A DNA stretch of 64,000 nucleotides from Planctomycetota bacterium (lineage in GTDB: Bacteria > Planctomycetota > UBA1135 > UBA2386), in NCBI GenBank assembly GCA_046290465.1, contig JBKAGP010000001.1, positions 6,112,001 through 6,176,000 of the forward strand, given 5' to 3'. Positions within the stretch are counted from its first letter, which is position 1; each line of letters begins with the position of its first letter. Positions 14,660-64,000 of the stretch are shown here, in pieces. A program made the position numbers and the translations under genes. Below the pieces are notes generated by a model. That model was not told the DNA's origin, searched no databases, and saw only the letters and a program-made list of their open reading frames with translations.

Positions 14660-14775
14660 GGCCCCGACAACCAGCCGGCCCCGACAGTTGGCTCCGACAA
14701 CCATCTGGCTACCCGGCCTTGCTGGCCAACCGAGCATGCCGGCTACCAGAGGCATGCCGGCTACCAGACCATGCT
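14660..14775. repeat. Degenerate ~17-bp tandem array (7 units) ending in the stop codon of the Kelch gene
   Basis: ggccccgacaaccagcc / ggccccgacagtt / ggctccgacaaccatct / ggctacccggccttgct / ggccaaccgagcatgcc / ggctaccagaggcatgcc / ggctaccagaccatgct. Confidence 0.65.
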
Positions 14776-16170
14776 GCGCACGCCCTGCGACGTGACCAGG
14801 ATGTCGGCGCCGTTGCCGCACAGCGCCTGCGCGTAGACGTCGACGCCGTAGACCGACGGCACGTTGGGGATCGGCAACGAGAACGCCGCGGTCCTCGTCC
14901 AGCCGTTCGGCTGGGTCGGCTGCCACTGGGTGACCGCCGGCTCGACCAGCAGGTCGCACACCGCGTTGCCGACGGGGCCGAGGTTGAACGGCAGCGGAAC
15001 CCCGTTCCAGCTGCTGTTGCTGAGCCCGAACGCGAACAGCGCCCACGAGATGTTGTTGGGCACGCTGACGCTGCCCTGCCAGTCCGCGCCGCGCTCGCAG
15101 AGGCCGCCGTACAGCGTCGCCGACACCGGGAACGCCGAGCACGAACTGCCGAACCACTCGGACACGACCCCCGGCTCGAACTCCCAGTGCTGCGGGTTGA
15201 GCAGCGAGGCCGGTCCGTCGAGCGCGCCGCCGAACAGGACGACGCGTCGTCGATCCGGGTCGAACGCGGCGGCCGCGCCGATCGTCGCCGGCGGCTTCGT
15301 CGGCGTCGCCAGTTCGGTCCAGCGGTCGCCGTCGAAGCGCCACAGCTCGCCCTGCGCCGGCAGCACGCCGCCCGGGCCGCGGCCGCCGACGAGCAGCGTC
15401 GACCTGGACGCGGCGTCGTAGACGAGCCGGTGCTCGCTGCGCGGCGGCGCCGTCGCCAGGCCGTTGGCCGGCACCGCGCTGCCGACGGTCACGATGAAGC
15501 CGTCGGACAGCACCGTTCCTTGCGCGTCGACCCCGCCGTAGAGGAACAGCCGTTCGGCCGGGTTGCCGTTGTAGGTCTGGGTCGTCCAGGTGAGCCCGAT
15601 GGCCGCGTCACGCCGCGGCGGGACCGCCGACGGGAACTGGGACCAGCCGAAGTTCGGACTCCACGACCAGTAGTCGCCGAGCATGCCCTGCACCGGCGAC
15701 CAGCCGCCGATGACGATCATGCCGCCGTCCCCGTAGGCCGCCGCGCCGGCGCGGGCGATCGGCGCCGTGGAGTAGTACTGCGTCTGCCAGTCGATGCCGT
15801 CGAACCACCAGACGTCGTTGAGCGGGCTGCCCTGGCTGTCGATGCCGCCGAACACCACGACCAGGCCCTGGTAGGGCAGGTAGCACATGCTGTGCTGGCT
15901 GCGCGCCGGTGGCACGTTGGCGGTCGTGCGCTGGGTCCAGGCGCCGTTGCGGTACTCCCAGGTCTCGGCGAGGGGTTGCGGCGGCGGCCAGATCCCGTCG
16001 TCGGCCTCGAGTCCGCCGAACAGCACCAGCGCGTCGCGGTCCTCGTGGTAGGCCATCCGGGTCGCGTAGCCGGGCGTCGGCGTCGGCGTGAACACCCGGG
16101 TCCAGTCCTGGGCGGTTGCGGTGGCGGCGATCGCGAGCAGTACGAACGGGATGGCGGGCACGGTCTTCAT
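14761..16170 (-). CDS. Secreted Kelch-repeat beta-propeller protein with lineage-type C-terminal domain
   Basis: Signal peptide; repeated P.R..H.m.Y....VLFGG....TW.y.G..W blades; C-terminal LPIP..P...G...YAQ domain. Confidence 0.85.
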   Translation of the reverse strand: MKTVPAIPFVLLAIAATATAQDWTRVFTPTPTPGYATRMAYHEDRDALVLFGGLEADDGIWPPPQPLAETWEYRNGAWTQRTTANVPPARSQHSMCYLPYQGLVVVFGGIDSQGSPLNDVWWFDGIDWQTQYYSTAPIARAGAAAYGDGGMIVIGGWSPVQGMLGDYWSWSPNFGWSQFPSAVPPRRDAAIGLTWTTQTYNGNPAERLFLYGGVDAQGTVLSDGFIVTVGSAVPANGLATAPPRSEHRLVYDAASRSTLLVGGRGPGGVLPAQGELWRFDGDRWTELATPTKPPATIGAAAAFDPDRRRVVLFGGALDGPASLLNPQHWEFEPGVVSEWFGSSCSAFPVSATLYGGLCERGADWQGSVSVPNNISWALFAFGLSNSSWNGVPLPFNLGPVGNAVCDLLVEPAVTQWQPTQPNGWTRTAAFSLPIPNVPSVYGVDVYAQALCGNGADILVTSQGVRSMVW

Positions 16171-16312
16171 GGGGTTCTCCTTCGGCGTCCGAGCATACCG
16201 GTGCAGCTGCGAGCCTGCAGGCCGTGGCCGTCTTCACGCAACCCTGACAGTTCGTTGTCCGATGGGCCAGCTGCGCTGGCTAGAAGACTGGGTCCCCATC
16301 CCCGCAACCAAC

Positions 16313-17524
16313 ATGCGCTTCGCTACCGCCGCCCTCTCCGCCCTCTTCGCCGCATCCGCGCTGACCGCGCAGGTCGACACCCAGCAGGACCCCGACGAGA
16401 TCGACCTCAAGCCGTCGCCGATCCTGCCGCCGGTGGTCGACTCGCCGGCGCTGCAGCTCGCCCGCCAGGTGCAGGACGGCTTCTCCGACATCGCCGAGCA
16501 CGTCTGGCCCTCGATCGTGACCGTGCGCGCGTACCGCCGCATCGGCAAGCAGGGTGAGGCGCAGCAGGAAGGCGGCTGGGTCGCCTCGACCGAGGACACC
16601 TACCCGGGCTTCGTCGAGTTCTCGGCGCTGACCGGTTGGGTGGTCGACGAGAAGGGCGAGATCCTGACCTGCAACCACGGCCTGGTCGCCGCCGACGGCA
16701 AGGCGCCGGACCTGATCGACATCGAGACGCACGACTTCCAGCGCATCATCGTCGAGCGCGTCGGCACCGAGCCGACCGTCAACCTCGCGATCCTGCAGGC
16801 GATGGTGTGGCCCAACAGCCACCCCAAGAAGCTGCCGGCGCTGCAGTGGGGCAACAGCGACCGCCTGCGCACCGGCGCCTGGCTGCTGTGCTTCGGCGAC
16901 CCGTCGGGCCCCGAGCGCTTCCTGTCGCTCGGCACGTTCATCTCGCGGCCATCGCGCGATTGCTACCAGGACCTGCTCAGCTCGTTCTTCATGCAGGCGG
17001 GCCTGGTCGCGCACCCGCAGGCCTACGGCGGTCCGATGATCGACCTCAAGGGCCGGGTCGTCGGCATCCTCGCGCCGGGGCAGCCCGAGCCGAAGAAGTG
17101 GCAGGAGTCCAAGCGCCAGGGCGTCGAGCTCGGCCTGCCGAGCAAGATCGTGCAGGGCCTGCACGACGCGATCCGCACCGCGCGCAGCTTCCGTTCGCCG
17201 TGGCTCGGCTACGCGGTGATGAGCCGCCCGGAGATCGCCAAGGTGCGCGGCATCAAGGCCTACCAGGAGATGGACAAGCCGCGCAACGGCATCCTGATCG
17301 AGAACGTCTTCGACCCGGGCCCGGCGTTCGCCGCCGGAATCCAGCCCAACGACTGGCTGGTCACGTTCGACAAGACGCGCATCTTCACGCCCGTCGACTT
17401 CCAGAAGCAGCTCTACCTCGCCGGCATCGGCACCAAGGTCAAGGTCGAGATCTTCCGCGACGGCGCCACCAGGTGGTACGAACTCGAGATCCAGGAGCGT
17501 CCGCAGGCCGCGACGCCTCGCTAG
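16313..17524 (+). CDS. HtrA/DegP-like (S1C) trypsin fold plus PDZ protein, catalytic triad degenerate
   Basis: Signal peptide; ILTCNH, EPTVNLAIL, PQAYGGPMIDLKGRVVGI; WLG...PA..AGI...D PDZ domain. Confidence 0.85.
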   Translation: MRFATAALSALFAASALTAQVDTQQDPDEIDLKPSPILPPVVDSPALQLARQVQDGFSDIAEHVWPSIVTVRAYRRIGKQGEAQQEGGWVASTEDTYPGFVEFSALTGWVVDEKGEILTCNHGLVAADGKAPDLIDIETHDFQRIIVERVGTEPTVNLAILQAMVWPNSHPKKLPALQWGNSDRLRTGAWLLCFGDPSGPERFLSLGTFISRPSRDCYQDLLSSFFMQAGLVAHPQAYGGPMIDLKGRVVGILAPGQPEPKKWQESKRQGVELGLPSKIVQGLHDAIRTARSFRSPWLGYAVMSRPEIAKVRGIKAYQEMDKPRNGILIENVFDPGPAFAAGIQPNDWLVTFDKTRIFTPVDFQKQLYLAGIGTKVKVEIFRDGATRWYELEIQERPQAATPR

Positions 17525-17936: not shown

Positions 17937-17941
17937 TCCGG

Positions 17942-19306
<1,365 letters not shown>

Positions 19307-19308
19307 CG

Positions 19309-20451
19309 CTACTCGCCGGGCTCCACCGGCAGGTCGTGGCCGAGCTGCTTGCCGACGATCAGCAGCACCTCGGTCTGCTGCTCGAGGCTCTCGATGGCGC
19401 GCAGCATCGCCTTGCGCCCCGGGCCGCCGTCGGGGCCGAGGAACGCCTGGTCGAACGGCTTGGGGATCGCCCGCAGCGCCTTCTCGGTGCGTCGCAGCGC
19501 CGCCTCGAGCGCGTCGGCGACGTCTGGCTGGTCGCGGACCAGCTCGATCAACCCCGGGCCCTTGCTGCCGCCGACCTCGCTGCCGAGCACGACCGCCATC
19601 AGCCCGAGCTGGTTGGAGACGAAGTCCTGCCAGGTGTTGTCGCTGAAGCAGCTGTGTTCCTGCTCCTGGTCCTGGGTCTCGTAGGCGACGACCATGCGTT
19701 CGCCACCGAGCTCGAACGCCGTCAGCACGGTGACGCCGACGAGGATGCGACGCACCGACGCCTCGACCTCCTTCTCGAAGCGCACGCGGTACTTTGCGCC
19801 CGGCGCCCACTCGCGCTGCAGCTCCGAGAGATGCTGCACCAGCAGCGCGCTGACGGCGCGCAGGTACTGGCCGCGGCGCGCGGCATTCGCGGCCTTGCCG
19901 ACCACGTAGTCGGTGAACGGGCGCGCGCCGGGGCCGTCGGCCGACAGGTCCTGGCCCCACAACAGGAACTCGATCGCGTGCCAGCCGACGCAGATGTTGG
20001 CCTCGCCGCCGCGTTCGTTGGCGAGCACCAGCAGCGGGGCGGCCAGCGTCGGGAAGCGCTCCTTGTCGTTGACGATGCCGCAGTCGCGCCGGCCCTCGAC
20101 GTAGTCGACGTAGGCCTCGTCGATCGGCCACGCGTTGAGCAGCGGCTCACGCGTCTCGATCGGACCGTCGTGGAAGCGCAGCGCCTCGGTCATGCCGTAG
20201 AGCTCACGCGCGTGCAGCCACGCCTTCCTGGCGGCCGCGAGGTTCGCCGCACTCGGCTGCTCGGTCAGCTCGACGATGCGTTCGTGCATCGCGGCGGCGC
20301 GTTGCCGCACCTGGCCGTACAGCTGGTGGCTCCACGCCGCGTGGTGGCGCACGACCTCGCGCTTTTGCTGGGCGAGGTCCTGGGCGCTGAGCAGGGCCGG
20401 AAAACCGAACAAGCCGAGCGCGAGGGCCCGGCCGGGATGGCTGGCGAACAT
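19309..20451 (-). CDS. Imelysin (peptidase M75)/IrpA-family iron-regulated protein
   Basis: Signal peptide; AR.AW..AR..Y..TEA.RF..GPI, NAWP.DE, GWHAIEFLLWGQD (GxHxxE), EHSCFSDNT. Confidence 0.92.
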   Translation of the reverse strand: MFASHPGRALALGLFGFPALLSAQDLAQQKREVVRHHAAWSHQLYGQVRQRAAAMHERIVELTEQPSAANLAAARKAWLHARELYGMTEALRFHDGPIETREPLLNAWPIDEAYVDYVEGRRDCGIVNDKERFPTLAAPLLVLANERGGEANICVGWHAIEFLLWGQDLSADGPGARPFTDYVVGKAANAARRGQYLRAVSALLVQHLSELQREWAPGAKYRVRFEKEVEASVRRILVGVTVLTAFELGGERMVVAYETQDQEQEHSCFSDNTWQDFVSNQLGLMAVVLGSEVGGSKGPGLIELVRDQPDVADALEAALRRTEKALRAIPKPFDQAFLGPDGGPGRKAMLRAIESLEQQTEVLLIVGKQLGHDLPVEPGE

Positions 20452-20566
20452 GATGGGATCGGTATGTCGGATCGGGCGGGGCGCGTCCAGCGGGACGGCG
20501 CATGGCCAAAGCCCATCCGGGTGTGTGCGGGTGGTCGGCGGGCGGGGGCGGGCCCCGCCGGCCGGG

Positions 20567-20596: not shown

Positions 20597-22390
20597 TCAG
20601 AACTGCAGTTCGACGCCGTCCGTCAGGATCAGCGCGCCGGTCGCGTCGACGCCGATGCCCTGGACCATGACGCTCAGGCCCGACAGGCCCGGCGGCACGA
20701 TCACGGCCACGGCACCGCCGCCGAACGGCAGCGCGTACGGGAAGCCACCCGTGAAGCCGCCGATGAGCGGGAAGCTCGGGGCGAACGGGTTCAGCCACAG
20801 CGGCGGCAGGAAGGTCGACTGGCCGGCGGCCGTGTCGAACAGCTGGAACATCGCGGCGAACGGCTGGCCGTAGAGCGAGCCGTTCGGCGAGTCGACGCGG
20901 ACCGAGACGCTCTGGAACGCCTGCGGGTTGCGCACGAACTCACCCGGGCCCTTGCTCGGCACGGCGTCGACGCCGGTCTTGAGGGTCAGGTCCAGGTCGG
21001 CGCCCGGGTACGGACGCGTCTCGAACGCCCACAGCGCATCGTTGCCCGAGGCCGGGTGCTGGATGTTGCAGATCGCGCGGTACGGGTTGTTCGGGTCGAA
21101 GATCAGGCCGGTCGGCTCCGAGCCGGTGGTGGCCAGCGACGCGAAGATCGCGAGGTGCTCGGCGACGCCGTCGCCGTCGGCGTCGACGGCCTTCCAGATG
21201 TCACCGGGGGTCTCGTCCTCGAGGATGTAGATCGCGCCGTCGGGGCCGATCGTCAGGTTGTCCGGATCGTCGAAGTTGGTCTCCGTGTCCGGGCCGGGGC
21301 TGGTGAAGGGGTCCTGCTGCGTCGGGTTGACGTCGGTGCCCGTCGCCAGGTTGATCGTGTCGTAGTTGCAGAAGTCGCGGACCATGCAGGTCGTGCTGCT
21401 GATCAGCTCGATCGACAGCACGCGGTTCTCGCTGGTCAGGGCGACGTAGACGCACTCGTTGCCGTTGGCGAGGAAGCCGATGTCGAGGTCCTCCGGGCGG
21501 CCGAACGGCGTGCCGAAGACTTCGTCGGCGGCGAGCTGGCCGGCCGTGACCGTCACGTAGGTGAACGGGTTGGTCGGGGTCAGCGGCTGGTTGTTGACGT
21601 CGGTCAGCGGGACCCACGTGGCCATGCCTTCGCGGGTGGTCAGCTGGTTGGCCGCCGAGTTGAAGTTCTCGGCCGGGTTGGCGTTCGGGTCGTTGGCGTA
21701 GCCGTCGACGCTGAGCACGAACGACTGGCCCGAGCTGAGGTCGCCGTAGGTCGTCGGCACGAACTTGTAGATGCTGCCCGTGTTGCTCTCGTCGATGTAG
21801 TAGAGCGTGCCTTCCGAGTCGATGCGCATGCCTTCGTGGCGGACCGACGGGATCGAGTCGTGCCAGATGACGTTGAACGGCCCGGTCGGGTCGAGCGGGT
21901 TGGTGCACTCGAAGAAGCGACCACCGGTGGTCTCCTCACCGAAGATGATCGAGCCCCACGGGGTCCAGGTGCACGGGTCGTTGGCGACGGTCTCGTCGGT
22001 GGTGTGGTCGAACGTGTTCGGGTCCGACTGACGGTTGGCGGCACCGGCGGCGTTGCCGATGAAGATCTCGATCCAGTCACCGGTCAGCGTGTCGTAGCGG
22101 AAGATGCCGCCGCCCGCGCCGAAGTTCTCGCACGGCACGAAGATGAAGCGGCTGTCGGGGCTGAACGCGACCATGTCCCAGTTGTTGGCGGTGGCCGGCA
22201 GGCCTTGCGCCATCAGGGTGTTGCGGTCGGTGATCTTGGTCTGGGTGACGCCGGTCGGCACCAGGAACGGAGCCGTGTTCTCGTTCGACGACGTGATCGG
22301 CGCCGAGTCGGGGATCGGGTAGAAGGTGCCTTGGGCGGCCAGCGAACCGGCGGCGACGAGCACGGAGGTAGTGAGGATGATGTTGCGCAT
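20597..22390 (-). CDS. phoX: PhoX-family (DUF839) alkaline phosphatase-like protein with C-terminal accessory domain
   Basis: TPWG....GEE, RHEG, IYKFVP, RPED, PDNL, EPTG, NIQHP; Sec-type signal; start set at ATG 22390. Confidence 0.85.
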   Translation of the reverse strand: MRNIILTTSVLVAAGSLAAQGTFYPIPDSAPITSSNENTAPFLVPTGVTQTKITDRNTLMAQGLPATANNWDMVAFSPDSRFIFVPCENFGAGGGIFRYDTLTGDWIEIFIGNAAGAANRQSDPNTFDHTTDETVANDPCTWTPWGSIIFGEETTGGRFFECTNPLDPTGPFNVIWHDSIPSVRHEGMRIDSEGTLYYIDESNTGSIYKFVPTTYGDLSSGQSFVLSVDGYANDPNANPAENFNSAANQLTTREGMATWVPLTDVNNQPLTPTNPFTYVTVTAGQLAADEVFGTPFGRPEDLDIGFLANGNECVYVALTSENRVLSIELISSTTCMVRDFCNYDTINLATGTDVNPTQQDPFTSPGPDTETNFDDPDNLTIGPDGAIYILEDETPGDIWKAVDADGDGVAEHLAIFASLATTGSEPTGLIFDPNNPYRAICNIQHPASGNDALWAFETRPYPGADLDLTLKTGVDAVPSKGPGEFVRNPQAFQSVSVRVDSPNGSLYGQPFAAMFQLFDTAAGQSTFLPPLWLNPFAPSFPLIGGFTGGFPYALPFGGGAVAVIVPPGLSGLSVMVQGIGVDATGALILTDGVELQF

Positions 22391-22577: not shown

Positions 22578-22976
22578 CTACTGGATCTTGATCTCGACGG
22601 CGTTGCTGAGGCCGAAGTAGAAGTCGAGCTGGCACAGCCCGGCGCCGAACAGCACGCCCTGGGCGTAGAACGTGAAGTCGACCAGCATCGGATCGTTCGG
22701 GATCGAGACCTGGTAGGTGACCAGCGTGATCAGGTCGAGGTCGGGCACCAGCACGCTCGAGCAGTTGGCGCCGATCGAGGTCATCGGCACGTCGGCGCGC
22801 GTGAGCCCGAGCACGACCGCGGGCAGCGGCGCGATCAGCGGGCTGATCTGCAGGGTGCTGCCGATCGTCGGCGTTCCGGAGATGAACAGCGGCGAGGTGC
22901 CGCCGCCAAGGGGCGTGATCTGGGCCGAAGCGGCGGTGGTCAACAGCAGGGCGCAGGCGAGGGTGGTCGTCTTCAT
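22578..22976 (-). CDS. Small secreted protein: signal peptide plus lineage-type C-terminal domain only
   Basis: MKTTTLACALLLTTAASA|Q...G.P.IG...LG...GANC..LVP...SIPNDP.L....FYAQ...SNAVEI; coding-like GC3 bias. Confidence 0.8.
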   Translation of the reverse strand: MKTTTLACALLLTTAASAQITPLGGGTSPLFISGTPTIGSTLQISPLIAPLPAVVLGLTRADVPMTSIGANCSSVLVPDLDLITLVTYQVSIPNDPMLVDFTFYAQGVLFGAGLCQLDFYFGLSNAVEIKIQ

Positions 22977-29438: not shown

Positions 29439-30595
29439 GTGGATGGCGGCCGGCCGACGGCCGAGCGCGCGGCGATGGCGGTGGCGGCGGCCGCGTCGGC
29501 GAACGCGACCTTGCCGAGCGTGCCGGTCGCGGCTTCTGCCGTGACGTCGAGCTTGCCGTCCTGCCAGGCGTCACCGCGCACGGTCGCGGGCAGCTGGGCG
29601 TCGCGGTACCGCTCGGGTTCGAACGAGCCGACCGCCTGCCACGCGATGTCGAAGGGGCGTTGCTCGTTCGATCCGGCGAGGAAGAACAGCGCCGAGTGGT
29701 CGATTCGCACGTCGCCAAAGCGCTCCGTGAGCGCGAACGGCAGCTCGGCCGCGCTGTCGATCACCCGCTGGCAGCCGTTCCGCATCGCCGCGGTCGTCGG
29801 GCGCCCGAACGTCTCCAGCATGCCGCTGATCTGCTCGCAGCTCAGCTGCCGTCGTCCGGCAGCGAGCCAGCTGAGGTCCGGCAGCCGGGCGTGGTCGACG
29901 ACCAGGCTCAGGTCGTAGGCCTTCGGCACGCGCAGGTCCACAGCGGCGAGTCGTCGTCGTGGGATCGGCACCGGCGCGGCTCGGTCGTCGAGCGCCACCA
30001 GCGCGCGCCTCGCGCGCTCGCGCAGCGCCTCCGGCTGATCGCCTTTGGCGAGCGCGGTCAGCTCGGGCCTGGCGTTCCTGCAGCCGCGTCGGAGCAGCAC
30101 GTCGATCGCGACCATGCGGTCGAGGATCGCGACGCGGCGGGCGACCGGATCCGATGGCAACGGCGTCGGCAGCATCTGCCGCAGGCCGAAGTCGGAAGGG
30201 TCGTAGCCACAGCGTTCGAGGTGAAAGGCGCCGTCGGTCATGGCCAGCAACTCGTGCGGGCCGTGGTAGAGCAGCGTCACGAAGCCGAGCAGGTCGGTGT
30301 TGCCCAGCCCGAAGTCGAACTCGTCCCCGCACAGCGGCACCCAGCGCGGCGAGCCGGTGTGCGAGCCGCCGATGTCCGCGATGTAGTCGAACTCCAGCAC
30401 GCCTTCGTCGGTGCGCCGGTAGCGCGACGTCTCGAACCGGCCGCCGCTGCGCACGCGCTCGGCGACCTTCGCGCCGGGTTCCTCCGCGAGCCGTTCGTCC
30501 TCGACGTCGGGCAGCTGCGGTTGCGTGGGGGAGGTCGGCTCCTGCTGGCCGGCGAGGCAGGCGCAGGCGGCGACGACGCAGAGGACTCCCTTCAT
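29435..30595 (-). CDS. Hypothetical secreted protein
   Basis: Signal-like MKGVLCVVAACACLAG|QQ; short HEAT-like helix pair; no recognised family. Confidence 0.65.
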   Translation of the reverse strand: MKGVLCVVAACACLAGQQEPTSPTQPQLPDVEDERLAEEPGAKVAERVRSGGRFETSRYRRTDEGVLEFDYIADIGGSHTGSPRWVPLCGDEFDFGLGNTDLLGFVTLLYHGPHELLAMTDGAFHLERCGYDPSDFGLRQMLPTPLPSDPVARRVAILDRMVAIDVLLRRGCRNARPELTALAKGDQPEALRERARRALVALDDRAAPVPIPRRRLAAVDLRVPKAYDLSLVVDHARLPDLSWLAAGRRQLSCEQISGMLETFGRPTTAAMRNGCQRVIDSAAELPFALTERFGDVRIDHSALFFLAGSNEQRPFDIAWQAVGSFEPERYRDAQLPATVRGDAWQDGKLDVTAEAATGTLGKVAFADAAAATAIAARSAVGRPPST

Positions 30596-34260: not shown

Positions 34261-37191
34261 CTACTTCTTGTCGCCGCCGCCGGCTTCGCCGCCGAGCTTG
34301 CCGGCGCCGTGCAGCTGCGTGATCGCGGCGCGCGCGGCCTTCTGCACCTCCCGGTCGTCGTCGGTGGTCCAGTCGATCAGGTAGGGAAGCGCCGCCGGCT
34401 CGCCGAGCAGCGCCAGCGAACGGATCGCCAGCAGCCGCTGCGCCTTGTCCTGATCGGGCATCGCCTGCGCGATCAGCTTGGCCGCGGCACTCGCCGGGGT
34501 CGTGTCGATGCGCCGGCTGGCGTCGCCCCAGAAGTCCTCCTGTTGGCGGATGGCGCGCAGGTCGTCCAGCGTGTTCTTCGCGTACTTGCGCACGTACGTG
34601 TCGTCGTCGCGCAGCAGCGGCAGCAGGTAGGCAGCGGCGCGCGAACCGAGCGCGCGCACCAGGGCCTGTGCGGCGCCGCTGCGCGTGCCCGATCGATCGT
34701 CGGCCAGCAGCGCTGCGACCTGCGTCTCGAGCTCGACGACGCGCGCGTCGGGCATCGCCTTCAGCGTCGAGTAGGTGTTCTCCTGGAGCAGCAGCAGCCA
34801 CAGGTCGCGATCGAATTCGAGGCGCTGCATCAGGCGCTCGATGTTGCCGATCCGCGGGTTGGCGCGAAGCGCCCGTTTGCCCGCCTCGGCGTAGCGGCGC
34901 GCGACCTCGGCGGGCAGCTGCGAGAGGACGCCCAGCCAGAGCCGGGCGTCGGAGGTCGAAGCCAGCCGCGAGACGCAGCTCTCGAGTCGCGGGTGGCGCT
35001 GCAGTTCTTCGGCATCGAGCGCGCGGAATGACGTCACCAGCGTGTAGCGGTTCTCGGGCTGGTCCTTCGGCCGCTCGGTGCTGTTGGCCAACAGCAGCGT
35101 GGTCAGCGCCGGCAGGCCGGCGGTGGGCACCCTCGCGCCGTCGCCGCCGTTGCCGTGCAGCAGGTCGAACCACACCTTGTCGGCGTGCGGGCCGGCGACC
35201 AGCGCCTGCCACAGGCGGACCTGCGCGTCGAACGGGTAGCCGACCTCGCCGGTGCAGAGGTAGTCGATGCGGCGCGTGCCGCGATTGGTGCGGGCGCCGC
35301 CGCGGTTGGCCCGGGTGGTCGCCGTGCCCTGCACGGTCGACGCCGAATCGCTCCAGTCGATGTCGTAGTGCGCGGCCAGCAGCGGGATCGCTGCCTCGTC
35401 GCCGGCGCGCACCAGCTCCTGGAACAGCCTGTCGGCGGTGTTGCCGTCGAGCTTCGCGTGGAAGCGTTCGAGCAGGTCGCGCAGTTGGTCACGCGCTGCG
35501 GCGTGATCCTGCTGCGACAGCTCGACCAGCACGCCGATGCAGTGCGGCAGCAGCTGAGGGCGCGCCGCCGCGATCGCACCGATCCACGGCGCGGCGCGGT
35601 CGGGCGCGGCCACACCGCCGAGACGCAGCAGCTCGAGCACTTCCGGGCGCCAGTGGATGCGGCCGTCGTGCAGCGTGCCGCGCCACGACACCGACGGGTC
35701 CTCGAAGCACTGCTGCACGGCCGCCCGGCAGGCCTCGAACCACGACGGATGCGGTTCGCGCTGGCGCAGCACGTTGAGCGCCTGACGGGGATCCCGCTGT
35801 TCGGGCAACGAACGGATCACGCGTGCCGCCTGCGCCGGGCTCGCCTGCCGGTAGATGTCCTCGAGCCAGCTCGTCTGCTTCTGGAAGTAGCCGAGCTCGA
35901 CCAGCGTGACGACGTCGTCGCGCGCGGCGTCGGTCCACGCCACCTGCATGCGGTCGAGCATGCCGGACAGCCCGGCCGCCGGACCGACCGGTGGCGACTG
36001 TGGCTCCCGTCGCGGCAGACGTCCGAGTTGGCTCGCCGTCTGCGCGGCCCGGTGGATCCAGGCATCGTCGGCCTCGACCCGGAACTCGTTGCCAGGACCG
36101 CCCGGGAAGTAGAAGTTGAAGTTGGCCGGCAGCGTGGTCGCGACCTCGAAGAACAGCTCGGTGCCGCCTTGCGGCCCGAATGCGAGCAGGGTCATCAGCA
36201 GGGTCTGTGCCGCCGTCCGCTGCGACGCGACCGGCGACGCCAGCGCGGCCCGGATGCGCTGGTGGTGCATCGAGAAGAACACCTCGCGTTCGACCTCGGA
36301 GTAGCGCTGCCAGTTGTTGGTGGCGGCGTTCATGGCGAGCGCCCGGGCGTCGGCGTTCTCGTTGCCGGCCAGCGCCAGCACGTCCTGCGGGCCGAGGTCG
36401 TGCGCGACCCGACGAAGGTTGCGCCAGGTCTCGCCGGTCGGATCGTTGCTGCGGGCGAACGCCGCGAACACGTCGGCCATGCCCTTGCCGCGCGCCGACG
36501 CGTTGGCCGACGCGAACCGCACCAGCGGCAGCGGCCCGGACGCGGCGGTCTTCAGCAGGAACGCGCGCGCCGGCTCGCCGCCGATCGACCACAGCAACTC
36601 GTAGAAGTACGACAGCTTCGGCGACAGGTTGCGCAGCCGCCAGTCCTCGCGCGCGATCGAGTCGTCGACGGCGAGCTGCCGGGCGACGACGCGCGCGGCC
36701 GGGTCGCCGAGCCACAGCACCTCGGTGCGCAGCGCCTGCAGGCGGCGTTCGTCCTCGCGCGACAGCTTCTGGTCGTTGGCGTAGCGCGACAGGATCTCGG
36801 CCATCCGGATCACCAGCGCCTCGGCCTTCTGTTCGCGCTCGCGGTCCTGCTGGCGGTCCTGGTTGCCGCTCTCGAGCAGCGCCTTGGCCTGCTCGGCGCG
36901 CTCGCCGCCGGACCTGGTGGCGCGCTCGAGCAGCGGCCGGGCCTCGTCGCGGCGGTCGAGCGTCCACAGCAGACGGCCGAGCCGCAGCGCGGTGTCCTCG
37001 TGCACGTCCTTGGCGCGCGCGTCGGCGAGCAGGCCGCGGTAGAGCTGCTCGGCGTGGTCGAGGCGGCCCTCGGAGGTCTCGACGACGGCGGCGTAGTCGA
37101 GCCGTTCCTTGGGCGTGGCTTCCCGGATCTGGCAGGGGATCGACGCGGCCAGGGCGGCCAGCGTCAGCGACGTTCGTAGGAGTTCCTTCAT
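34261..37191 (-). CDS. Large secreted TPR/HEAT-repeat alpha-solenoid protein
   Basis: Signal peptide; N-terminal TPR-like helices; C-terminal HEAT repeats (LL.DD...VR..A, LG...A.P.L......D.D.EV..AA). Confidence 0.8.
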   Translation of the reverse strand: MKELLRTSLTLAALAASIPCQIREATPKERLDYAAVVETSEGRLDHAEQLYRGLLADARAKDVHEDTALRLGRLLWTLDRRDEARPLLERATRSGGERAEQAKALLESGNQDRQQDREREQKAEALVIRMAEILSRYANDQKLSREDERRLQALRTEVLWLGDPAARVVARQLAVDDSIAREDWRLRNLSPKLSYFYELLWSIGGEPARAFLLKTAASGPLPLVRFASANASARGKGMADVFAAFARSNDPTGETWRNLRRVAHDLGPQDVLALAGNENADARALAMNAATNNWQRYSEVEREVFFSMHHQRIRAALASPVASQRTAAQTLLMTLLAFGPQGGTELFFEVATTLPANFNFYFPGGPGNEFRVEADDAWIHRAAQTASQLGRLPRREPQSPPVGPAAGLSGMLDRMQVAWTDAARDDVVTLVELGYFQKQTSWLEDIYRQASPAQAARVIRSLPEQRDPRQALNVLRQREPHPSWFEACRAAVQQCFEDPSVSWRGTLHDGRIHWRPEVLELLRLGGVAAPDRAAPWIGAIAAARPQLLPHCIGVLVELSQQDHAAARDQLRDLLERFHAKLDGNTADRLFQELVRAGDEAAIPLLAAHYDIDWSDSASTVQGTATTRANRGGARTNRGTRRIDYLCTGEVGYPFDAQVRLWQALVAGPHADKVWFDLLHGNGGDGARVPTAGLPALTTLLLANSTERPKDQPENRYTLVTSFRALDAEELQRHPRLESCVSRLASTSDARLWLGVLSQLPAEVARRYAEAGKRALRANPRIGNIERLMQRLEFDRDLWLLLLQENTYSTLKAMPDARVVELETQVAALLADDRSGTRSGAAQALVRALGSRAAAYLLPLLRDDDTYVRKYAKNTLDDLRAIRQQEDFWGDASRRIDTTPASAAAKLIAQAMPDQDKAQRLLAIRSLALLGEPAALPYLIDWTTDDDREVQKAARAAITQLHGAGKLGGEAGGGDKK

Positions 37192-42639: not shown

Positions 42640-45192
42640 TCAGAACATCCCGATCGTGTGCTGCAGGCGGTTGCCGGCGCTGAGTCCGGTCAGCGCGCCC
42701 GCGGTCAGCTCGACGCCGACGACCTGCTGGTAGAGCGCCGAGCCGAGCAGCGCGGCGCTCGCCGGGATCGGCAGCGACAGCTGCGCGCGGCCCTGGCTGT
42801 GCCCCGCGACCTGCACGAAGTCGGGCGTCACCCACAGCGTGCACGCCGACAGCGGCAGCGGCTGCACGGTCGGCGACAGGCCGAGCACGTCGAGCGCGAG
42901 GCCGCCGGTCGGCAGCCCCTCGGCGACGCTGCGCAGCTCGCCGCCGAGGAACGCGCCCTGCTCGGCGCGCAGCACGTTCGGGCCGCCGCTGCCGACGCAG
43001 TTGGGGCCGAAGCTCTGGCCGGTCGCCGGGCAGTCCGTCCGCACGCGCGTGAAGTGGACGGCGACGAGGCCGTCGTGCTCGACGAAGCGGCCGGCGACGT
43101 GGAGTTCGCCGCGGCGCGTGAACTGCAGGTCGAGCACGGTGCCCGGGGTGCCGTCGGCCGCGCCGACCCCGCCGGCGAGCTGGCTCCAGCCGGTGCCGTC
43201 GAAGCGCGCCAGGCTGCGCGCCGCGACGCCGCCGATCGCGTCGAACTCGCCGCCGACGACCAGGTCGCCGTCCGGCAGCACCGCGATCGTGTGTAGCACG
43301 CCGGCCGTCGGCGCCGGCAGCGATTGCCAGCTGCTGCCGTCGAAGCTGGCGACGAACGGCTGGGCGGTGGTCGTGCCGCAGACGAACAGCACGCCGTCGC
43401 GCCGCACCACGCAGTCGCTGACGACGTGGCCCGTGCCCGCGACCGCGCTGGTCAGCCCGGCGCCGAGCGGCAGCCACGCCTGGCCGTTCCAGCGCATCAC
43501 GCCCGGCTGGCCGCCGCCCGGGATCGACTGCAGCGCGCCGCCGGCGACGAGGTCGCCGCCGGGCAATTCGGCGAGCGTTGCGAACTGTCCGGACAGGCCG
43601 CTCTGCTGCGTGCTGAGCAACGTCCAGCCGGTGGGGCCGTGGCGGAACAGGCCGTTGCCGCCGGCATACACGGTGCCGTCCTCGAGCTCCACCACGCAGC
43701 TCGCGCCGCCGAGGAACGGGGTGTTGCCGAAGCCCGACCAGGTCGCGCCGTCGAAGCGCATGACGTCACCGTTCGGGCCGACGACGAACGAGCCGGCGAT
43801 CAGCACCGAGCCGTCGGCGGCGGGCTCGATCGCGCGCACCTCGGGCAAGAACGGCGCGCCCTGCAGCACCGGCCCGTTGGCCGTCGACTGCGGCAGCCAG
43901 GTGCCGCCGACGCCGCGCACCAACCCCGGCGAGTAGTTGCGTTCGACCCGGTAGAACGAGCCGCCGAGCAGCAGGTCGCCGTTGGGCAGCGCGGTCGAAG
44001 CCTGCACCGGCGCGTCGATGCCGCCGCCCATCGGGTCCGCCTGCCAGCTGCCGACCACCGCGACGCCGTTGCACGGCTCCCCGCTGACGGCCTCGAACGG
44101 GCCGGCGAGCGCGAACGCCGTCGGCGTGTTCTGGCCCGGGCGCGGGTCGATCGACAGCGACAGGCGTGACGGCGTGAACGTCGCCGCGGTCGCCAGCGGG
44201 GCATAGAGCGCCGTCCAGCCGGCCAGCGGCTCCCACAGCGCCACGCCGGCCTGCTGGCCGAACGCGTCGAAGTCGCCCACGGCCATCAGGGCCTCGCCCT
44301 GGAAGCCCGTGGTGATGCCGAGCGCGCCGATCCACGGCCCCGCGGGGAACGAGTTGCTCGGCCCCAGTCCTGGCAGGTCGCTCCAGGTGCTGCCGTCCCA
44401 TCGGCGCACGGCCGGCAGCGTGGGGGCGGCGGCGAACACGTCGCCGCCCGACATCACCGCGATCGACGCGACCGGCTGCGCGACGCCGGCACCGAGCGCC
44501 GACCAGCCGGAGCTGCTCCAGCGCGCGAGGTTCTGTGCCGGGGTCGAGCCGGCGGTCGCGAACGCGCCGCCGGCCAGCAGGTCGCCGTTGGCGTCGATGC
44601 AGATGGACTGCACCAACGGGTCCGGGCCACCGGCCACGCCGCCGCCCAGTCCGACCCACTGCGAGCCGTTCCAGCGGGCGAGGCGCGCGGTCGGCTGTCC
44701 GGCACAGGCCGTGAAGCGTCCGCCGGCGACCGGGTCGCCGTTGGCGAGGGTGCCGACGACGAGCGGTTCGGCGTCGAAGTCGCCGCCGAGCACCGTCCAC
44801 ACGCTGCCGTTCCAGCGCGCGACCCGATGCACGGCCGCTGCACCTTGCCCGAGCGAGCCCGCGACCAGCAGCGTGTTGTTGCCATCGACGGCGGCCGCGC
44901 GCACATGGTCGAACGGGCCTGCGGGCAGGGTCGTCCAGCTCCGGGTGGCTGGGTCGTACAGCGCCGCGCCGGCGCACGGGGTCGCCTCGACGTATGCGAA
45001 CGCGCCGCCGACGAAGACGAGCATCGGAGCCGGCCCGGCGCCATCGGAGTCCCAGTAGCGCACGACGTCCGGACGTGCGGACGGGCCGCGGTGGGCGAAC
45101 GCGGGCGTCGCGACCAGCCCGCACTGGGCGGACACGAGTGCGGTGGACAGCGACAGGCCGATGGCCGCGAGGATCGGATGGGTGGGGTTCAT
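42640..45192 (-). CDS. Secreted multi-blade beta-propeller protein with lineage-type C-terminal domain
   Basis: Signal peptide; ~14 repeats of G.L.AGG.F...G......ARW.G..W..LG.G; C-terminal FG..C...LPIP....L.G..LYQQ domain. Confidence 0.88.
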   Translation of the reverse strand: MNPTHPILAAIGLSLSTALVSAQCGLVATPAFAHRGPSARPDVVRYWDSDGAGPAPMLVFVGGAFAYVEATPCAGAALYDPATRSWTTLPAGPFDHVRAAAVDGNNTLLVAGSLGQGAAAVHRVARWNGSVWTVLGGDFDAEPLVVGTLANGDPVAGGRFTACAGQPTARLARWNGSQWVGLGGGVAGGPDPLVQSICIDANGDLLAGGAFATAGSTPAQNLARWSSSGWSALGAGVAQPVASIAVMSGGDVFAAAPTLPAVRRWDGSTWSDLPGLGPSNSFPAGPWIGALGITTGFQGEALMAVGDFDAFGQQAGVALWEPLAGWTALYAPLATAATFTPSRLSLSIDPRPGQNTPTAFALAGPFEAVSGEPCNGVAVVGSWQADPMGGGIDAPVQASTALPNGDLLLGGSFYRVERNYSPGLVRGVGGTWLPQSTANGPVLQGAPFLPEVRAIEPAADGSVLIAGSFVVGPNGDVMRFDGATWSGFGNTPFLGGASCVVELEDGTVYAGGNGLFRHGPTGWTLLSTQQSGLSGQFATLAELPGGDLVAGGALQSIPGGGQPGVMRWNGQAWLPLGAGLTSAVAGTGHVVSDCVVRRDGVLFVCGTTTAQPFVASFDGSSWQSLPAPTAGVLHTIAVLPDGDLVVGGEFDAIGGVAARSLARFDGTGWSQLAGGVGAADGTPGTVLDLQFTRRGELHVAGRFVEHDGLVAVHFTRVRTDCPATGQSFGPNCVGSGGPNVLRAEQGAFLGGELRSVAEGLPTGGLALDVLGLSPTVQPLPLSACTLWVTPDFVQVAGHSQGRAQLSLPIPASAALLGSALYQQVVGVELTAGALTGLSAGNRLQHTIGMF

Positions 45193-45378: not shown

Positions 45379-46926
45379 ATGCGATCGTCCAGCTTCGTCG
45401 TGGCCGTGCCCCTCTTGCTCCTCGCCGTCCTGCCCGCCCAGGAGGGCTCGCGCGCCGTCGGCTCCGGCCGCGCGTTCACCGAACAGAAGGTGCTGACGCC
45501 CGGCCAGCGCGATCGCTGGGAGGTCGACGTCGCAGCGGACGAGGTGCTGCGGTTCCGGGTGACGGCGCAGCAGTTCGATCCGGTGCTCGAACTGGTCGAC
45601 GCGGCGGGCACGGTGCTGGCGAGCGACGACGGCGTTGGCTCGCAGAGCTACGTGCAGCACCGCGTGCCGCAGGCGGGCAAGGTCGCGTTCGTCGTGCGCG
45701 GCTACCGCGGCGGCGGCGGCGGCCGCTACGACGTCTGGATGGAGCGCTACCGGACCGTCGCCGCGGCCGTCGGTGACGAGGTCGAAGGGCGCATCGGAGA
45801 GCACGGCTGGGCGCACGTCCGGCTGCAGCTCGAGCAGGGCGCGCGGTTCTTGCCGCTCGTCGACGGCGCGCGGCTGACCTACGTGATGGAGTTCGGTCCG
45901 GACCGCCAGCTGCACGCGCGCTTGAACACCTACACAGCGCTCGCCGCCGGCGAACACCATCTGCGCGTCGAGGGCCGCGCCGGCGACGCGTTCTGCCTGC
46001 GGACCCTGCGCCCGACGACGCGCGAACCCGAGGTCGGCGAACGGCTCGACGTCACCCTCGCGCCGGGGGGGATGGACGTGCTGCGGATCCGGCTGCCGCC
46101 CGACCGCGCCTGCATGCTCGATCTGGCGATGCCCGGCGTGCAGCTGCAGCAGCACCTGCAGCTGGTCGACCTGCGGCGGCCGTACTGCCAGCTCGGCACC
46201 GCGATCAAGGGCGGCCGGGTGCGGCGGCTGTTCTGGGCGCAGCAGGGCGCCGACCTGGAGCTGTGGCTGCACCATGCCGGCGGCGGCGAGGCTGGCTACA
46301 CGTTCTGTCTGCGCGACGCCGATCGGCCGGCGCCGGACGACCAGCAGGCGCAGCTCGCGCTCGGCGACCTGCAGTGCCACACGATCCCGGCGCGGACCGG
46401 CGACATCGTGTCGCTGGTGGCGCGCTCGGAGCGGTTCGATCCGAGCATGGTGGTGATCGATCCGCATGGCCACGAGGTGTGCCACGTGCACGATCGCGGC
46501 GCACTCGACCGGGCCGCGAGCGCGACGTTCGACGCGCGCCACGACGGCTCCTACCGCGTGCTCGTCTACGCGCCGGCCCACGCGGGCTCAGGTGGCTACG
46601 ACCTCGACGTGACCCGCCACGAAGTGCCCGAAATCGCGTTCGGCCGGTCGCTGCAGCTCGCCTGCGATCCGACCGCGAACGCGCACGCGCAGCTGCGGCT
46701 GCCGGCGGGCCAGGAGGTCTGGTTGTCGGTCAAGGGGGCCGGCGTCGATCCCGCGCTGACCGTCGTCGACGACCGCGGCCACACGCTCGGCTGCTGGGAG
46801 GGCGGCGGCGTGCGCGGCGACGTGCTGCAGGCGCTGCGGCTGGACCGGACCTCGCGGCTGACGCTGTTCGTGCACGCGCGTTCGGGCCAGGGGGTCTGCA
46901 CGGTTCGCGCGATCGCGGTCGAATGA
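45379..46926 (+). CDS. Secreted protein of tandem PPC (pre-peptidase C-terminal)-like beta-sandwich domains
   Basis: Signal peptide; repeated FDP.L...D..G......DD.G...G.Y...V......G.G.Y.L modules. Confidence 0.75.
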   Translation: MRSSSFVVAVPLLLLAVLPAQEGSRAVGSGRAFTEQKVLTPGQRDRWEVDVAADEVLRFRVTAQQFDPVLELVDAAGTVLASDDGVGSQSYVQHRVPQAGKVAFVVRGYRGGGGGRYDVWMERYRTVAAAVGDEVEGRIGEHGWAHVRLQLEQGARFLPLVDGARLTYVMEFGPDRQLHARLNTYTALAAGEHHLRVEGRAGDAFCLRTLRPTTREPEVGERLDVTLAPGGMDVLRIRLPPDRACMLDLAMPGVQLQQHLQLVDLRRPYCQLGTAIKGGRVRRLFWAQQGADLELWLHHAGGGEAGYTFCLRDADRPAPDDQQAQLALGDLQCHTIPARTGDIVSLVARSERFDPSMVVIDPHGHEVCHVHDRGALDRAASATFDARHDGSYRVLVYAPAHAGSGGYDLDVTRHEVPEIAFGRSLQLACDPTANAHAQLRLPAGQEVWLSVKGAGVDPALTVVDDRGHTLGCWEGGGVRGDVLQALRLDRTSRLTLFVHARSGQGVCTVRAIAVE

Positions 46927-52762: not shown

Positions 52763-54079
52763 ATGCACGCCCCTAGCTGGACCGCCCTGCTGGCCGCGGC
52801 CGTGCTGGCCGCCTCGTGCGGCTGGCCGTCGCGCCACGCCTCGCTGGCCGAACTCCCGACCGAACTGGTGCCGATGGAGGGCTTCGAGGACGTGCGGGCG
52901 GTCGACGGCTACCCGGACGCCGCGTTCCAGGCGTCGTTCGACGCGGCGATCGCGCAGCTGGCGGCCTCGCCGGTGCCCGCCGACGGCCGCCGCGACTTCG
53001 ACATGCTGGTGCTCAGCAGCGGCGGCGTGAACGGCTCCTTCGGCGCCGGCATCCTGACCGCGTGGTCGCAGCGCGGCGACCGGCCGACGTTCGAGACCGT
53101 CACCGGGGTCAGCGTCGGCGCGCTGATGGCGCCGTTCGCGTTCGCCGGCCCCGCGTTCGACCACCGCCTCGAGCAGCTGTTCCGCCACATCAACCCGGGG
53201 GACCTGCACCGCGAGAAGGGCGTGCTGACGTCGGTGCTGTGGGACGAGTCGCTCGCCGACAACCGGCCGCTGCGCCGGCTGGTCGCGCGCGGCGTCGACG
53301 ACGAGCTGATGCGCGCGATCGCCAAGGGGCACGCCGAGGGTCGTCGCCTCTACGTCGGCTCGACCAACATGGACATCGGCCAGTTCTGCATCTGGGACCT
53401 CGGCGCGATCGCGACCCGCGGCACCGACGAGGCGCGCGACCTGCTGTGCGACGTGCTGGTCGCGTCGGCGTCGATCCCGGTGGTCTATCCGCCGATGCGC
53501 TTCGAGGTCGGCGGCCGCGACGAACTGCACAGCGACGGCGCGGTGACGCGGCCGCTGTTCATGCCGCAGAACGTGTTCGACGGCTACCTGTCGGCCGAGC
53601 GCGCCGGCGTCAGCTGGGACGACATCGACGCGACCCTCTACGTCGTGCACAACGGTTCGCTACGCGCCTGCCCGACCGACGTGCAGCGCGACACGCTCGC
53701 GATCGCGACGCGCACCGTCACGATGATGAGCTACACGATGGTGTCGGAGCACATCCTGCACCTCTACCTGCTGGCGCGCGCGTGGGGCGCCGAGTTCCGC
53801 TTCCACACGCTGCCCGGCGGCCAGGAACTGCCGATCGACAGCTTTACGTCGGCGGACACCAACCGGCTGTTCCTGCTCGGCCAGGGGCTGATGGAGCGCA
53901 ACGAACCGTGGCTGCAGGCGCCGCCCGGCTACGTCGTCAACGAGGACCTGCACCGGGTCCAGCCGCACTCGACCCCGGCGGCGGTGGTCGACGAGCGAGG
54001 CCTGAGCGAGCGCCTGACCGTCATCGAGGAGCAGCTGCGGCTGCTGCGTGAGGAACTGCGCGCGGCGCGCGAGCAATAG
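52763..54079 (+). CDS. Patatin-like phospholipase, lipoprotein
   Basis: Lipobox LAASC; LSSGG..G oxyanion loop, GVSVG nucleophile, ASASIP, DGA; C-terminal coiled coil. Confidence 0.9.
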   Translation: MHAPSWTALLAAAVLAASCGWPSRHASLAELPTELVPMEGFEDVRAVDGYPDAAFQASFDAAIAQLAASPVPADGRRDFDMLVLSSGGVNGSFGAGILTAWSQRGDRPTFETVTGVSVGALMAPFAFAGPAFDHRLEQLFRHINPGDLHREKGVLTSVLWDESLADNRPLRRLVARGVDDELMRAIAKGHAEGRRLYVGSTNMDIGQFCIWDLGAIATRGTDEARDLLCDVLVASASIPVVYPPMRFEVGGRDELHSDGAVTRPLFMPQNVFDGYLSAERAGVSWDDIDATLYVVHNGSLRACPTDVQRDTLAIATRTVTMMSYTMVSEHILHLYLLARAWGAEFRFHTLPGGQELPIDSFTSADTNRLFLLGQGLMERNEPWLQAPPGYVVNEDLHRVQPHSTPAAVVDERGLSERLTVIEEQLRLLREELRAAREQ

Positions 54080-61584: not shown

Positions 61585-61602
61585 CGCTATCTGGTCGGCG
61601 GC

Positions 61603-62394: not shown

Positions 62395-62420
62395 TCCGAT
62401 CTCGTCTACGATGCTCGGGG

Positions 62421-63266
62421 ATGAACGGATCCGATCTCGAACCCGGTAGCAGCGCCCCGACAACCCGGGTCGTCGGACGGCGCGATGCCGACCCTCGCGA
62501 GGCGGAGCTGTGGCGCCGGCTGCAGGCGTTCGAGCTGGACGCGGTCGACGCGGCGCTGCCGTTCTCGCAGCGGCTGGCGCGTGAGAACGGCTGGAGCCGC
62601 GCGTTCGCGCAGCGCGCGATCGACGAGTACCGGCGGTTCGTGTTCCTGGCGATGGTCGCCGGCCACCCGGTCACGCCGTCCGACGAGGTCGACCAGGTCT
62701 GGCACCTGCACCTCTGCTACACGCGTTCGTACTGGGACGAGCTGTGCTGTACGATCCTGCCGCGGCCGCTGCACCACGGGCCGACGCGCGGCGGCGGCGA
62801 CGAACGGCACAAGTACGACGTGTGGTACCGCCGCACGCTGGCCAGCTACCGGCGGGTCTTCGGCGAGGAGCCGCCGCCCGCGTGGTGGCCGTCGCCGCAG
62901 CTTCGGTTCGCCCCGCGGCGCTGGCGGCGCGTCGACGTCGGCTCACAGCTGGTCGTCGCGCGCGCGTGGCTGGTGGCGGCCGTCGCGCTGGCCTCGTTGC
63001 TGCTGCTGCCGGCGTGCCGGGGCGTGCACGTCGCCGTTGGCATCGTCACGTTGGTCGGCTTGTTCGGGCTCGGGTGCATCATCTGGGCGGCGATCCGCAG
63101 CGGCGGCGGCGGCGGCCGAGGCGGCGACCACGGCGGCTGCGGCGATGCCGGCGGCTACGGGTGTGGCGGCGGTCGCGACGGCGATTCCGGCTGCGGCAAC
63201 AGCGGCTGCGGCGGCAGTGGTTGTGGCGGTGGTGGTTGTGGCGGCGGTGGCTGCGGCGGCGACTGA
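62421..63266 (+). CDS. Glycine-rich-domain (GRDP/DUF1399-like) membrane protein with Gly/Cys-rich tail
   Basis: RLARENGW....A.RAI.EY.RF.FL...PSD.VDQVWHLH..YTRSY...C......LHH.P; two hydrophobic segments; tail with 7 GCG units. Confidence 0.85.
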   Translation: MNGSDLEPGSSAPTTRVVGRRDADPREAELWRRLQAFELDAVDAALPFSQRLARENGWSRAFAQRAIDEYRRFVFLAMVAGHPVTPSDEVDQVWHLHLCYTRSYWDELCCTILPRPLHHGPTRGGGDERHKYDVWYRRTLASYRRVFGEEPPPAWWPSPQLRFAPRRWRRVDVGSQLVVARAWLVAAVALASLLLLPACRGVHVAVGIVTLVGLFGLGCIIWAAIRSGGGGGRGGDHGGCGDAGGYGCGGGRDGDSGCGNSGCGGSGCGGGGCGGGGCGGD

Positions 63267-63445
63267 CCGGCGCGGTTGGCCCCCGAACGGGAACTTCGTC
63301 TTTTCGCGACCGATCGGCGCGGCCGTTCGGCCACTGGACGCCCCGTGCCCGGGGCTGCCATCCAGGGCACGGATTTCCGCACGGAATGACGAATATGGCC
63401 CAACGCCGGTCGTTGGGCCGCCCTTTCCAAGACCGCCCACCTGCC

Positions 63446-64000
63446 ATGCTCCTTCGCACGCTCACCGTCTCCGCGCTGACCACGCTGGTCGCCGCCCAGT
63501 CCGTCCCGCTGCAACCCCGCTCGGTCGCCGACGCGCTGCCGGCCTCCACCTACGCCGCGGTGCGGTTCGGTGGCCTCGACGCCTGTCGCGAGGCGGTCGG
63601 CCAGCTGCCGATGACCGCGCTGGTCGAGTCGTTCTTCGGGGAGCTGCCGGCCGAGCTGCGCGACCAGGTCCTCGAGGACGGCCTCGCCGACGCCGCCGAC
63701 GAGCTGCGCCAGCACCTGCAGGAAGCGGGCATCAAGCCGGCCGAGCTGCGCGCGGTGCTGAGCCAGCCGATGGCCGTCGCGGTCGGCCGCCTGTCGATCG
63801 AGGGCATGGGACCGTCGCTGTGCCTGCTGGTCGAAGAAGGCAACCGCCGTCAGGCGATCAACAACACCATGCGCGCGGTCGGCCGGCTGCTGCCGCGCCT
63901 CGGCGCCAACGTCGAGCTCGGTCGCGACGAGATCGCCGGCCACAAGCTCTACCGCCTGCAGATCGAGGACGGCCCGCCGGTGTTCGCGGGCTGGCTCGGC
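63446..64000 (+). CDS. Secreted hypothetical protein, truncated by the window end (not in ORF track)
   Basis: Open from ATG 63446 to the end: MLLRTLTVSALTTLVAA|QSVPLQPRSVADALPASTYAAVRF...; strong GC3 bias. Confidence 0.8.
   Translation, partial: MLLRTLTVSALTTLVAAQSVPLQPRSVADALPASTYAAVRFGGLDACREAVGQLPMTALVESFFGELPAELRDQVLEDGLADAADELRQHLQEAGIKPAELRAVLSQPMAVAVGRLSIEGMGPSLCLLVEEGNRRQAINNTMRAVGRLLPRLGANVELGRDEIAGHKLYRLQIEDGPPVFAGWLG

Follow-up and report, generated by a model that had tools for sequence, protein, structure and literature searches.

Glutamine-first exported proteins and predicted membrane-tethered glutaminyl cyclases point to a Q-rule in a lineage of Planctomycetota

The Q-rule, by which more than 48% of the signal peptidase I (SPase I) substrates of an organism are predicted to start with Gln, is near-universal in Bacteroidetes, of which Porphyromonas gingivalis has a single glutaminyl cyclase (QC), PgQC (PG2157). 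As far as the accessible parts of the papers cited here go, a survey of the rule covered Bacteroidetes, Chlorobi, Spirochaetes, Chlamydiae and Cyanobacteria and contained outliers such as Ignavibacterium, at 77% (PMC5837995); a 2023 paper holds that the rule applies “exclusively in the Bacteroidetes phylum” and that the data show stabilisation without a mechanism, protection from periplasmic dipeptidyl peptidases being put forward as an untested proposal (PMC10653852). Planctomycetes are unmentioned in the accessible text and supplements of the first paper and the accessible part of the second, and our literature search, which reached few subscription papers and no bioRxiv supplements, found no report of Gln-first secretomes in Planctomycetota. 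Here we describe such a secretome in a planctomycete genome (G000; one 6.59-Mb contig, C1, 70% GC, 94% complete), beginning with a stretch of 64,000 nucleotides, referred to below as the window (G000:C1:6112001-6176000). Compared with Bacteroidetes, the pattern occurs in a different phylum, is patchy within it, and is accompanied by up to three QCs, including a conserved pair.

The window encodes twelve exported proteins (Table 1) whose ATG-started open reading frames each begin with an apolar stretch followed by a small residue and then by Gln at residues 17-24. The twelve Ala/Gly/Cys-Gln junctions listed in a preliminary description of the window are all present in the translations, and the first Gln past residue 12 is the predicted +1 residue each time; all cleavage sites, in the window and genome-wide, are predictions by our own rules and models. 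For nine of the twelve, a Gln-blind classifier called an SPase-I-type N-terminus and put the junction at the noted Gln; the proteins starting at 16313, 45192 and 63446, read from the noted starts, were too low in charge or hydrophobicity for its cut-offs. A separate scan of the 62 genes called in the window returned one lipoprotein and ten N-termini of the SPase-I type, every one of them Gln-first; no non-Gln candidate of the SPase-I type was found in it. Taking a background of 33% (the value that the method gives for Proteobacteria), the chance of twelve Gln in twelve is 1.7e-6. Pfam backs the Kelch, Trypsin_2 with PDZ, DHOR, imelysin, PhoX, S9, HEAT_2 and PPC assignments of the substrates, and the two window lipoproteins carry Cys instead, within LLTGC and, by eye, LAASC. 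In the 132-aa protein the signal peptide varies between homologues and the invariant block begins with Ala18-Gln19-Ile20 in 5/5 aligned sequences (the query and four homologues).

The possibility of a Bacteroidota origin of the contig, raised in the same description, was rejected: the window RpoA groups with Planctomycetota, being 97% identical to two “Planctomycetota bacterium” records and 48% identical to one Acidobacteriota record. The order to which the genome belongs includes Engelhardtia mirabilis, as two proteins of one order genome (G180) are identical to E. mirabilis records; this species is a member of the OM190/UBA1135 clade (bioRxiv 10.1101/817700).

The same pattern extends over the genome. 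A total of 4756 genes were called, and their N-termini were classed by rules blind to differences among D, E, K, R, N, Q and H, which gave 650 SPase-I-like and 257 lipoprotein-like sequences. The first strongly polar residue past the apolar run is Gln in 450/650, with Gln accounting for 12.9% of the polar residues in mature regions. By a junction rule, in which the 99 of 650 candidates that have no junction are dropped before counting, the +1 residue is Gln in 430/551 (430/650, or 66%, of all candidates); applied behind internal hydrophobic runs as a null, the same rule gives Gln in 190/1993 (9.5%). A matrix (the recoded model) trained by expectation maximisation (EM) after these seven polar residues had been collapsed into a single letter, from which 82/650 candidates below the posterior or score cut were dropped, places Gln at +1 in 478/568, or in 456/514 at a stricter score, and yields a canonical box, with Ala at -1 in 72% and L/A/V at -3, directly ahead of the polar boundary. 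In a DNA pattern that involves no model, made up of 12 apolar codons followed by Ala and then X, in frame near gene starts, X is Gln in 182 cases, Glu or Asp in 6 and Lys in none. The +1 Gln share is even along the chromosome (66-87% across ten bins), and lipoproteins have no such bias, the residue after their Cys being Gln in just 9/187. Genome-wide +1 Gln is far above background and, by our own predictors, above the Q-rule level. Inspection by eye of the 121 “non-Gln” junctions showed about 50 to have a plausible box with Gln close by and many of the rest to look like lipoproteins or anchors; we estimate the true share at 75-90%. In the 22 candidate substrates of twin-arginine translocation a Gln pattern is not obvious by eye.

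An extracytoplasmic QC encoded elsewhere in the genome had been anticipated from the window, and three M28-type copies, each predicted to be membrane-tethered, were found outside it. They are the three short ones among 13 matches of an M28 search, all candidates for type II (animal-type) QCs (Table 1). The motifs H-x-D-T-K, GA[NI]DG, D[GA]EE, D-x-x-G, DDH and WH are common to them, and counterparts of human D159, E201, E202, D248, H330 and W329 are present in 3/3. In the second tandem copy (1871278-1872387), D187, E220 and H332 correspond to human D159, E202 and H330, and E219 and D262 to human E201 and D248; the first Asp of DDH is presumably equivalent to human D305. The E202 position is occupied by Glu in these proteins and by Asp in bacteroidal QCs. 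Their fold and metal-binding residues are shared with M28 aminopeptidases (PDB 1QQ9, 2EK8), in which, unlike in QCs, the Zn-binding Asp is followed by Asn/Asp and there is a second metal site; QCs have Gly/Ser in place of that Asn/Asp, and a Trp and a Phe lie close to their His ligand (PMC7948796). Gly after the Zn-binding Asp and Trp before the His ligand, in an xDDH / WH pattern, were found in 3/3, and the other 10/10 M28 proteins of the genome have, by eye, the aminopeptidase Asn/Asp.

A sequence search put 7D18 (E 1e-33), 7D1B (E 1.4e-25) and Bacteroidales QCs on top. An AlphaFold model was made of the second tandem copy (pLDDT 95.5), and ranks 1-10 of its Foldseek search are filled by QCs of bacteria and by proteins that have been reassigned to the QCs (7d18, 7cjg, 7d1b, 6qro, 6qql), those of Acidobacteriales, P. 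gingivalis, Fimbriiglobus and Tannerella being closest, with template modelling (TM) scores of 0.80-0.85. In both kinds of search QCs rank far above M28 aminopeptidases. The best matches in sequence and fold (TM 0.85), the Acidobacteriales bacterium QC (PDB 7D18) and the Fimbriiglobus ruber QC (PDB 7D1B), the latter a planctomycete M28 protein already solved as a QC, are only 28-34% identical, and an NCBIfam search put no name on the three QCs of the source genome. Beyond the phylum, Acidobacteriota and Rokubacteria supply most of the best 80 of 596 relatives. Motifs in all three proteins and the modelled fold of one show them to be type II QCs, from which we infer their activity. No match to the plant-type (type I) QC PF05096 was found in this 94% complete genome (controls positive in 3/14), nor to pyroglutamyl peptidase C15 (controls positive in 4/14). 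Its peptidases include five S46 dipeptidyl peptidases, ten aminopeptidase-type M28 proteins and three S26 peptidases, of which two are large.

Comparator samples, all small, were scored with the recoded model and then with the junction rule. A Persicobacter plasmid, as a Bacteroidota control, gave +1 Gln in 6/10 and 8/13, Proteobacteria in 8/32 and 11/33, pooled Planctomycetaceae and f69 in 4/23 and 10/37, QC-less planctomycetes in 10/32 and 11/40, and the family of the source genome in 30/41 and 27/40 (of our family labels, f7 is Planctomycetaceae and f29 contains Kuenenia). QC-positive loci from other classes gave 11/13; in small QC-locus samples from Acidobacteriota and Rokubacteria (L042-L113), the junction rule gave 7/17 in Vicinamibacterales, 4/6 in Pyrinomonadaceae/Blastocatellia and 3/9 in Rokubacteria. 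In nine homologue pairs in which the outside protein is non-Gln and its match in the source genome has a junction, the latter has Gln in 6/9. Sampling was by 100 kb per genome, which yields 2-18 candidates each and was pooled because of these low numbers; sampled in this way, the source genome gives 44/79, vs. 450/650 genome-wide. Eight planned genomes were left out, save for single 20-kb loci for two, and a PhoX search aimed at the control plasmids gave no match. The source genome is far above the background in other diderms, which by our methods is about 17-33% and not near the 4% proteome frequency.

Within the order, a type II QC is present in 55/61 genomes, with two matches in each of the 21/21 family genomes other than the source genome. 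In four of the six order genomes that do not have it there is a plant-type QC instead, and each of these four QCs shows, by eye, a lipobox-like Cys. PF05096 occurs in 6/61 overall, and a QC of either type in 59/61; that either of two unrelated folds is kept in so many genomes suggests that the activity is needed. This split echoes that between Bacteroidia and Flavobacteriia in the accessible part of PMC5837995. Among 151 genomes of the phylum, type II QCs were found in 35, type I in 12 and S46 in 30, with 6 of the 35 and 2 of the 12 being weak matches that were counted as QC-negative without inspection. For each genome we calculated a Gln index by dividing the count of the Gln pattern by that of the Glu-or-Asp pattern; the index includes a membrane-helix background and depends on secretome size and GC. 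It is 2.92 in the source genome, against a median of 0.48. An index of at least 1.2 is reached by 13/20 genomes with both QC and S46, 0/17 with QC only, 1/10 with S46 only and 5/104 with neither, and 8/9 families with an index of at least 1.0 include QC-positive genomes. E. mirabilis, with its type I QC, comes out in between, at an index of 96/87 = 1.10; as a named species of the order, it brings a direct test within reach. QC genes that appear split or have an internal stop (G174:C7 359680-360290, G135:C20 16327-17199 and G153:C1 230919-231806) reflect either assembly error or decay.

We consider it highly likely that the lineage of the source genome runs a Bacteroidota-like Q-rule, with Gln-first exported proteins that are capped with pyroglutamate by periplasmic QCs and so guarded against the cell's own exopeptidases. 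The signal peptides, of the Sec type, end in (L/A/V)-x-Ala followed by Gln, and SPase I is predicted to cleave ahead of this Gln. Zinc-dependent type II QCs, predicted to lie on the periplasmic side, would then convert the exposed Gln to pyroglutamate, as judged from P. gingivalis; with a mostly Gln-first secretome and three membrane-tethered QCs, exported proteins are very probably capped in this way. The blocked alpha-amino group would shield them from the exported S46 dipeptidyl peptidases and aminopeptidase-type M28 enzymes of the cell, a role suggested by work on P. gingivalis and by co-occurrence across the phylum. The co-occurrence of QC and S46 fits the 2023 proposal of protection from dipeptidyl peptidases. 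The findings are well explained as a known system, real and genome-wide, in a phylum in which it is unpublished. The rule does not extend to the whole phylum: Planctomycetaceae, 8/8 QC-positive in the sample, show no dominance of Gln.

Several observations weigh against this reading. An upstream-only -3/-1 rule gives Gln in 253/650 (39%), often picking earlier Ala boxes, and a hand-weighted masked rule in 318/555 (57%); both were retained as lower bounds. Training by EM with only the +1 column masked shifted two residues upstream and was discarded as not blind, and about 30 “x-x-A-Q-A” junctions are ambiguous. The position of human F325 is Tyr in 1/3 and Gly in 2/3 of the QCs, in a loop that differs in 7D18 too. 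The bias is weaker in other families of the order (17/34 with type II QC, 4/9 with type I, by the recoded model). A genome with a QC need not follow the rule: Planctomycetaceae, though 8/8 QC-positive, have a family index of 0.43, and one genome (G149) of the order of the source genome has both QC types and an index of 0.28. Four genomes of family f45 (G129, G100, G048, G067) have indices of 1.4-1.6 and are four of the five high-index genomes with neither QC nor S46; two others of that family are at 0.93-0.97. No QC of either type was recognised in the four high-index f45 genomes, which are PF05096-negative in the phylum sample and have M28 matches of aminopeptidase length only. Finally, related genomes of the phylum are not independent, and P values for co-occurrence are overstated as a consequence.

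Some of these points would also be met if Gln-first N-termini merely reflected a compositional or signal-peptidase preference at P1', pyroglutamate forming spontaneously and the QCs serving few substrates. Even in controls, Gln ranks first or second among polar +1 residues (11/33 in Proteobacteria and 11/40 in QC-less planctomycetes), f45 has the bias with no recognised QC, Planctomycetaceae keep a QC without the bias, and two of the three S26 peptidases of the source genome are large. We nevertheless regard such a preference as an improbable explanation of a level of 78-84%, which equals or exceeds that of the Bacteroidota control, of the retention of QC in 59/61 order genomes through either of two unrelated folds, and of the QC-positive genomes in 8/9 families with an index of at least 1.0.

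It is harder still to believe that the sites are misplaced, SPase I cutting at an upstream A-x-A box or after A-Q-A so that Gln is not the mature N-terminus. The Ala-rich c-regions do hold several boxes, as the low count of the upstream-only rule and the drift of the masked EM training illustrate, but in the recoded model the Ala-richest column abuts the polar boundary, with L/A/V two positions further up, as in a canonical -3/-1 box; conservation among homologues of the 132-aa protein begins at Ala-Gln; and Ala is the residue next after Gln in only 36 of the 450 first-polar-Gln cases. Hardly credible, too, is a sorting mark that would route proteins to the surface together with an unnamed C-terminal domain of about 135 aa, for although 87 of the 169 proteins with this domain are classed SPI/Gln (54 are unclassifiable), these 87 stand against 515 Gln-first proteins (with start rescue), most of which do not have it, presumed periplasmic enzymes are Gln-first too, and in Bacteroidetes a general role of pyroglutamate as a sorting signal was shown not to hold (PMC5837995, accessible part).

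Beyond the Q-rule of this lineage, we tentatively suggest, as a possibility rather than a favoured view, that proteome-wide pyroglutamate capping, far from being peculiar to Bacteroidetes, is a repeatedly evolved answer to periplasmic dipeptidyl peptidases, gained to differing degrees in planctomycete lineages only where a tethered QC and S46 coincide. Either QC fold would serve, the family of the source genome would keep a dedicated two-enzyme pair, and f45 may use a third, unrecognised cyclase. A second, distant phylum with a graded bias supplies a comparison that the idea of protection from peptidases had lacked, as the bias follows QC with S46 and not QC alone. Hundreds of N-termini rewritten in concert would be an unusual example of a whole proteome co-evolving with one enzyme, and blocked N-termini would affect N-terminomics and signal-peptide prediction in these uncultured lineages.

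Table 1. Predicted SPase I substrates, lipoproteins and the ribosomal operon of the window (window positions), and the QC genes (contig positions). Shared domain, the C-terminal domain of about 135 aa.
Feature	Location	Strand	Remarks
Ribosomal S10-spc-alpha operon	211-14538	+	its RpoA serves as taxonomic marker
Kelch-repeat exported protein, 469 aa	14761-16170	-	+1 Gln21, codon 16108-16110; C-terminal end is shared domain (14761-15168)
HtrA-like protease (Trypsin_2 + PDZ), 403 aa	16313-17524	+	+1 Gln20, 16370-16372
Di-haem oxidoreductase (DHOR), 454 aa	17942-19306	-	+1 Gln21, 19244-19246
Imelysin-family protein, 380 aa	19309-20451	-	+1 Gln24, 20380-20382
PhoX-family protein, 597 aa	20597-22390	-	+1 Gln20, 22331-22333
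132-aa protein, signal peptide and stand-alone shared C-terminal domain	22578-22976	-	+1 Gln19, 22920-22922; shared domain 22578-22922
Exported protein without Pfam match, 386 aa	29435-30595	-	+1 Gln17, 30545-30547
HEAT-repeat exported protein, 976 aa	34261-37191	-	+1 Gln21, Cys at -1, 37129-37131
Lipoprotein (Dabb domain), lipobox LTGC	39983-40372	-	SPase II substrate, internal contrast
S9A prolyl oligopeptidase, 699 aa	40372-42471	-	+1 Gln21, 42409-42411; Pfam S9_N match from residue 19
Beta-propeller exported protein, 850 aa	42640-45192	-	+1 Gln23, 45124-45126; C-terminal end is shared domain (42640-43038)
PPC-domain exported protein, 515 aa	45379-46926	+	+1 Gln21, 45439-45441
Patatin-family lipoprotein, lipobox LAASC (by eye)	52763-54079	+	SPase II substrate, internal contrast
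596-aa exported protein, 5' part	63446-64000	+	+1 Gln18, 63497-63499; gene extends beyond window end
Type II QC, tandem partner 1	G000:C1 1870230-1871270		lipobox-type Cys
Type II QC, tandem partner 2	G000:C1 1871278-1872387		lipobox-type Cys
Type II QC	G000:C1 2691760-2692794		hydrophobic anchor, looks uncleaved

The domain of about 135 aa lies at the extreme C-terminus in 155 of its 169 copies in the source genome and is a candidate sorting or anchoring tag. It has no NCBIfam match, and the similar proteins found are all unnamed Planctomycetota proteins. The tail of the window PhoX protein resembles it by eye but gives no match to it.

The clearest exceptions to the Gln-first pattern are three paralogous exported proteins (G000:C1 722847(-), 725032(-) and 3893117(+)) whose mature part begins with HGGQYRGP; the His at +1 may be functional. 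The idea that non-Gln substrates are recent acquisitions was dropped: at 0.29 per codon, against 0.31, their coding score is barely lower, and miscalls are mixed into the set. Three genes divergent from the tandem QC pair (G000:C1 1865394-1870118, minus strand) resemble what we take to be a PrkA/YhbH/SpoVR-type cluster. A sequence labelled as the RpoA of Leptolyngbya valderiana BDU 20041 falls, at 90%, into one cluster with RpoA of Phycisphaerales; the assembly may thus be a mixed one, and this would account for its Q-value of 45%, a cyanobacterial outlier in the accessible part of PMC5837995.

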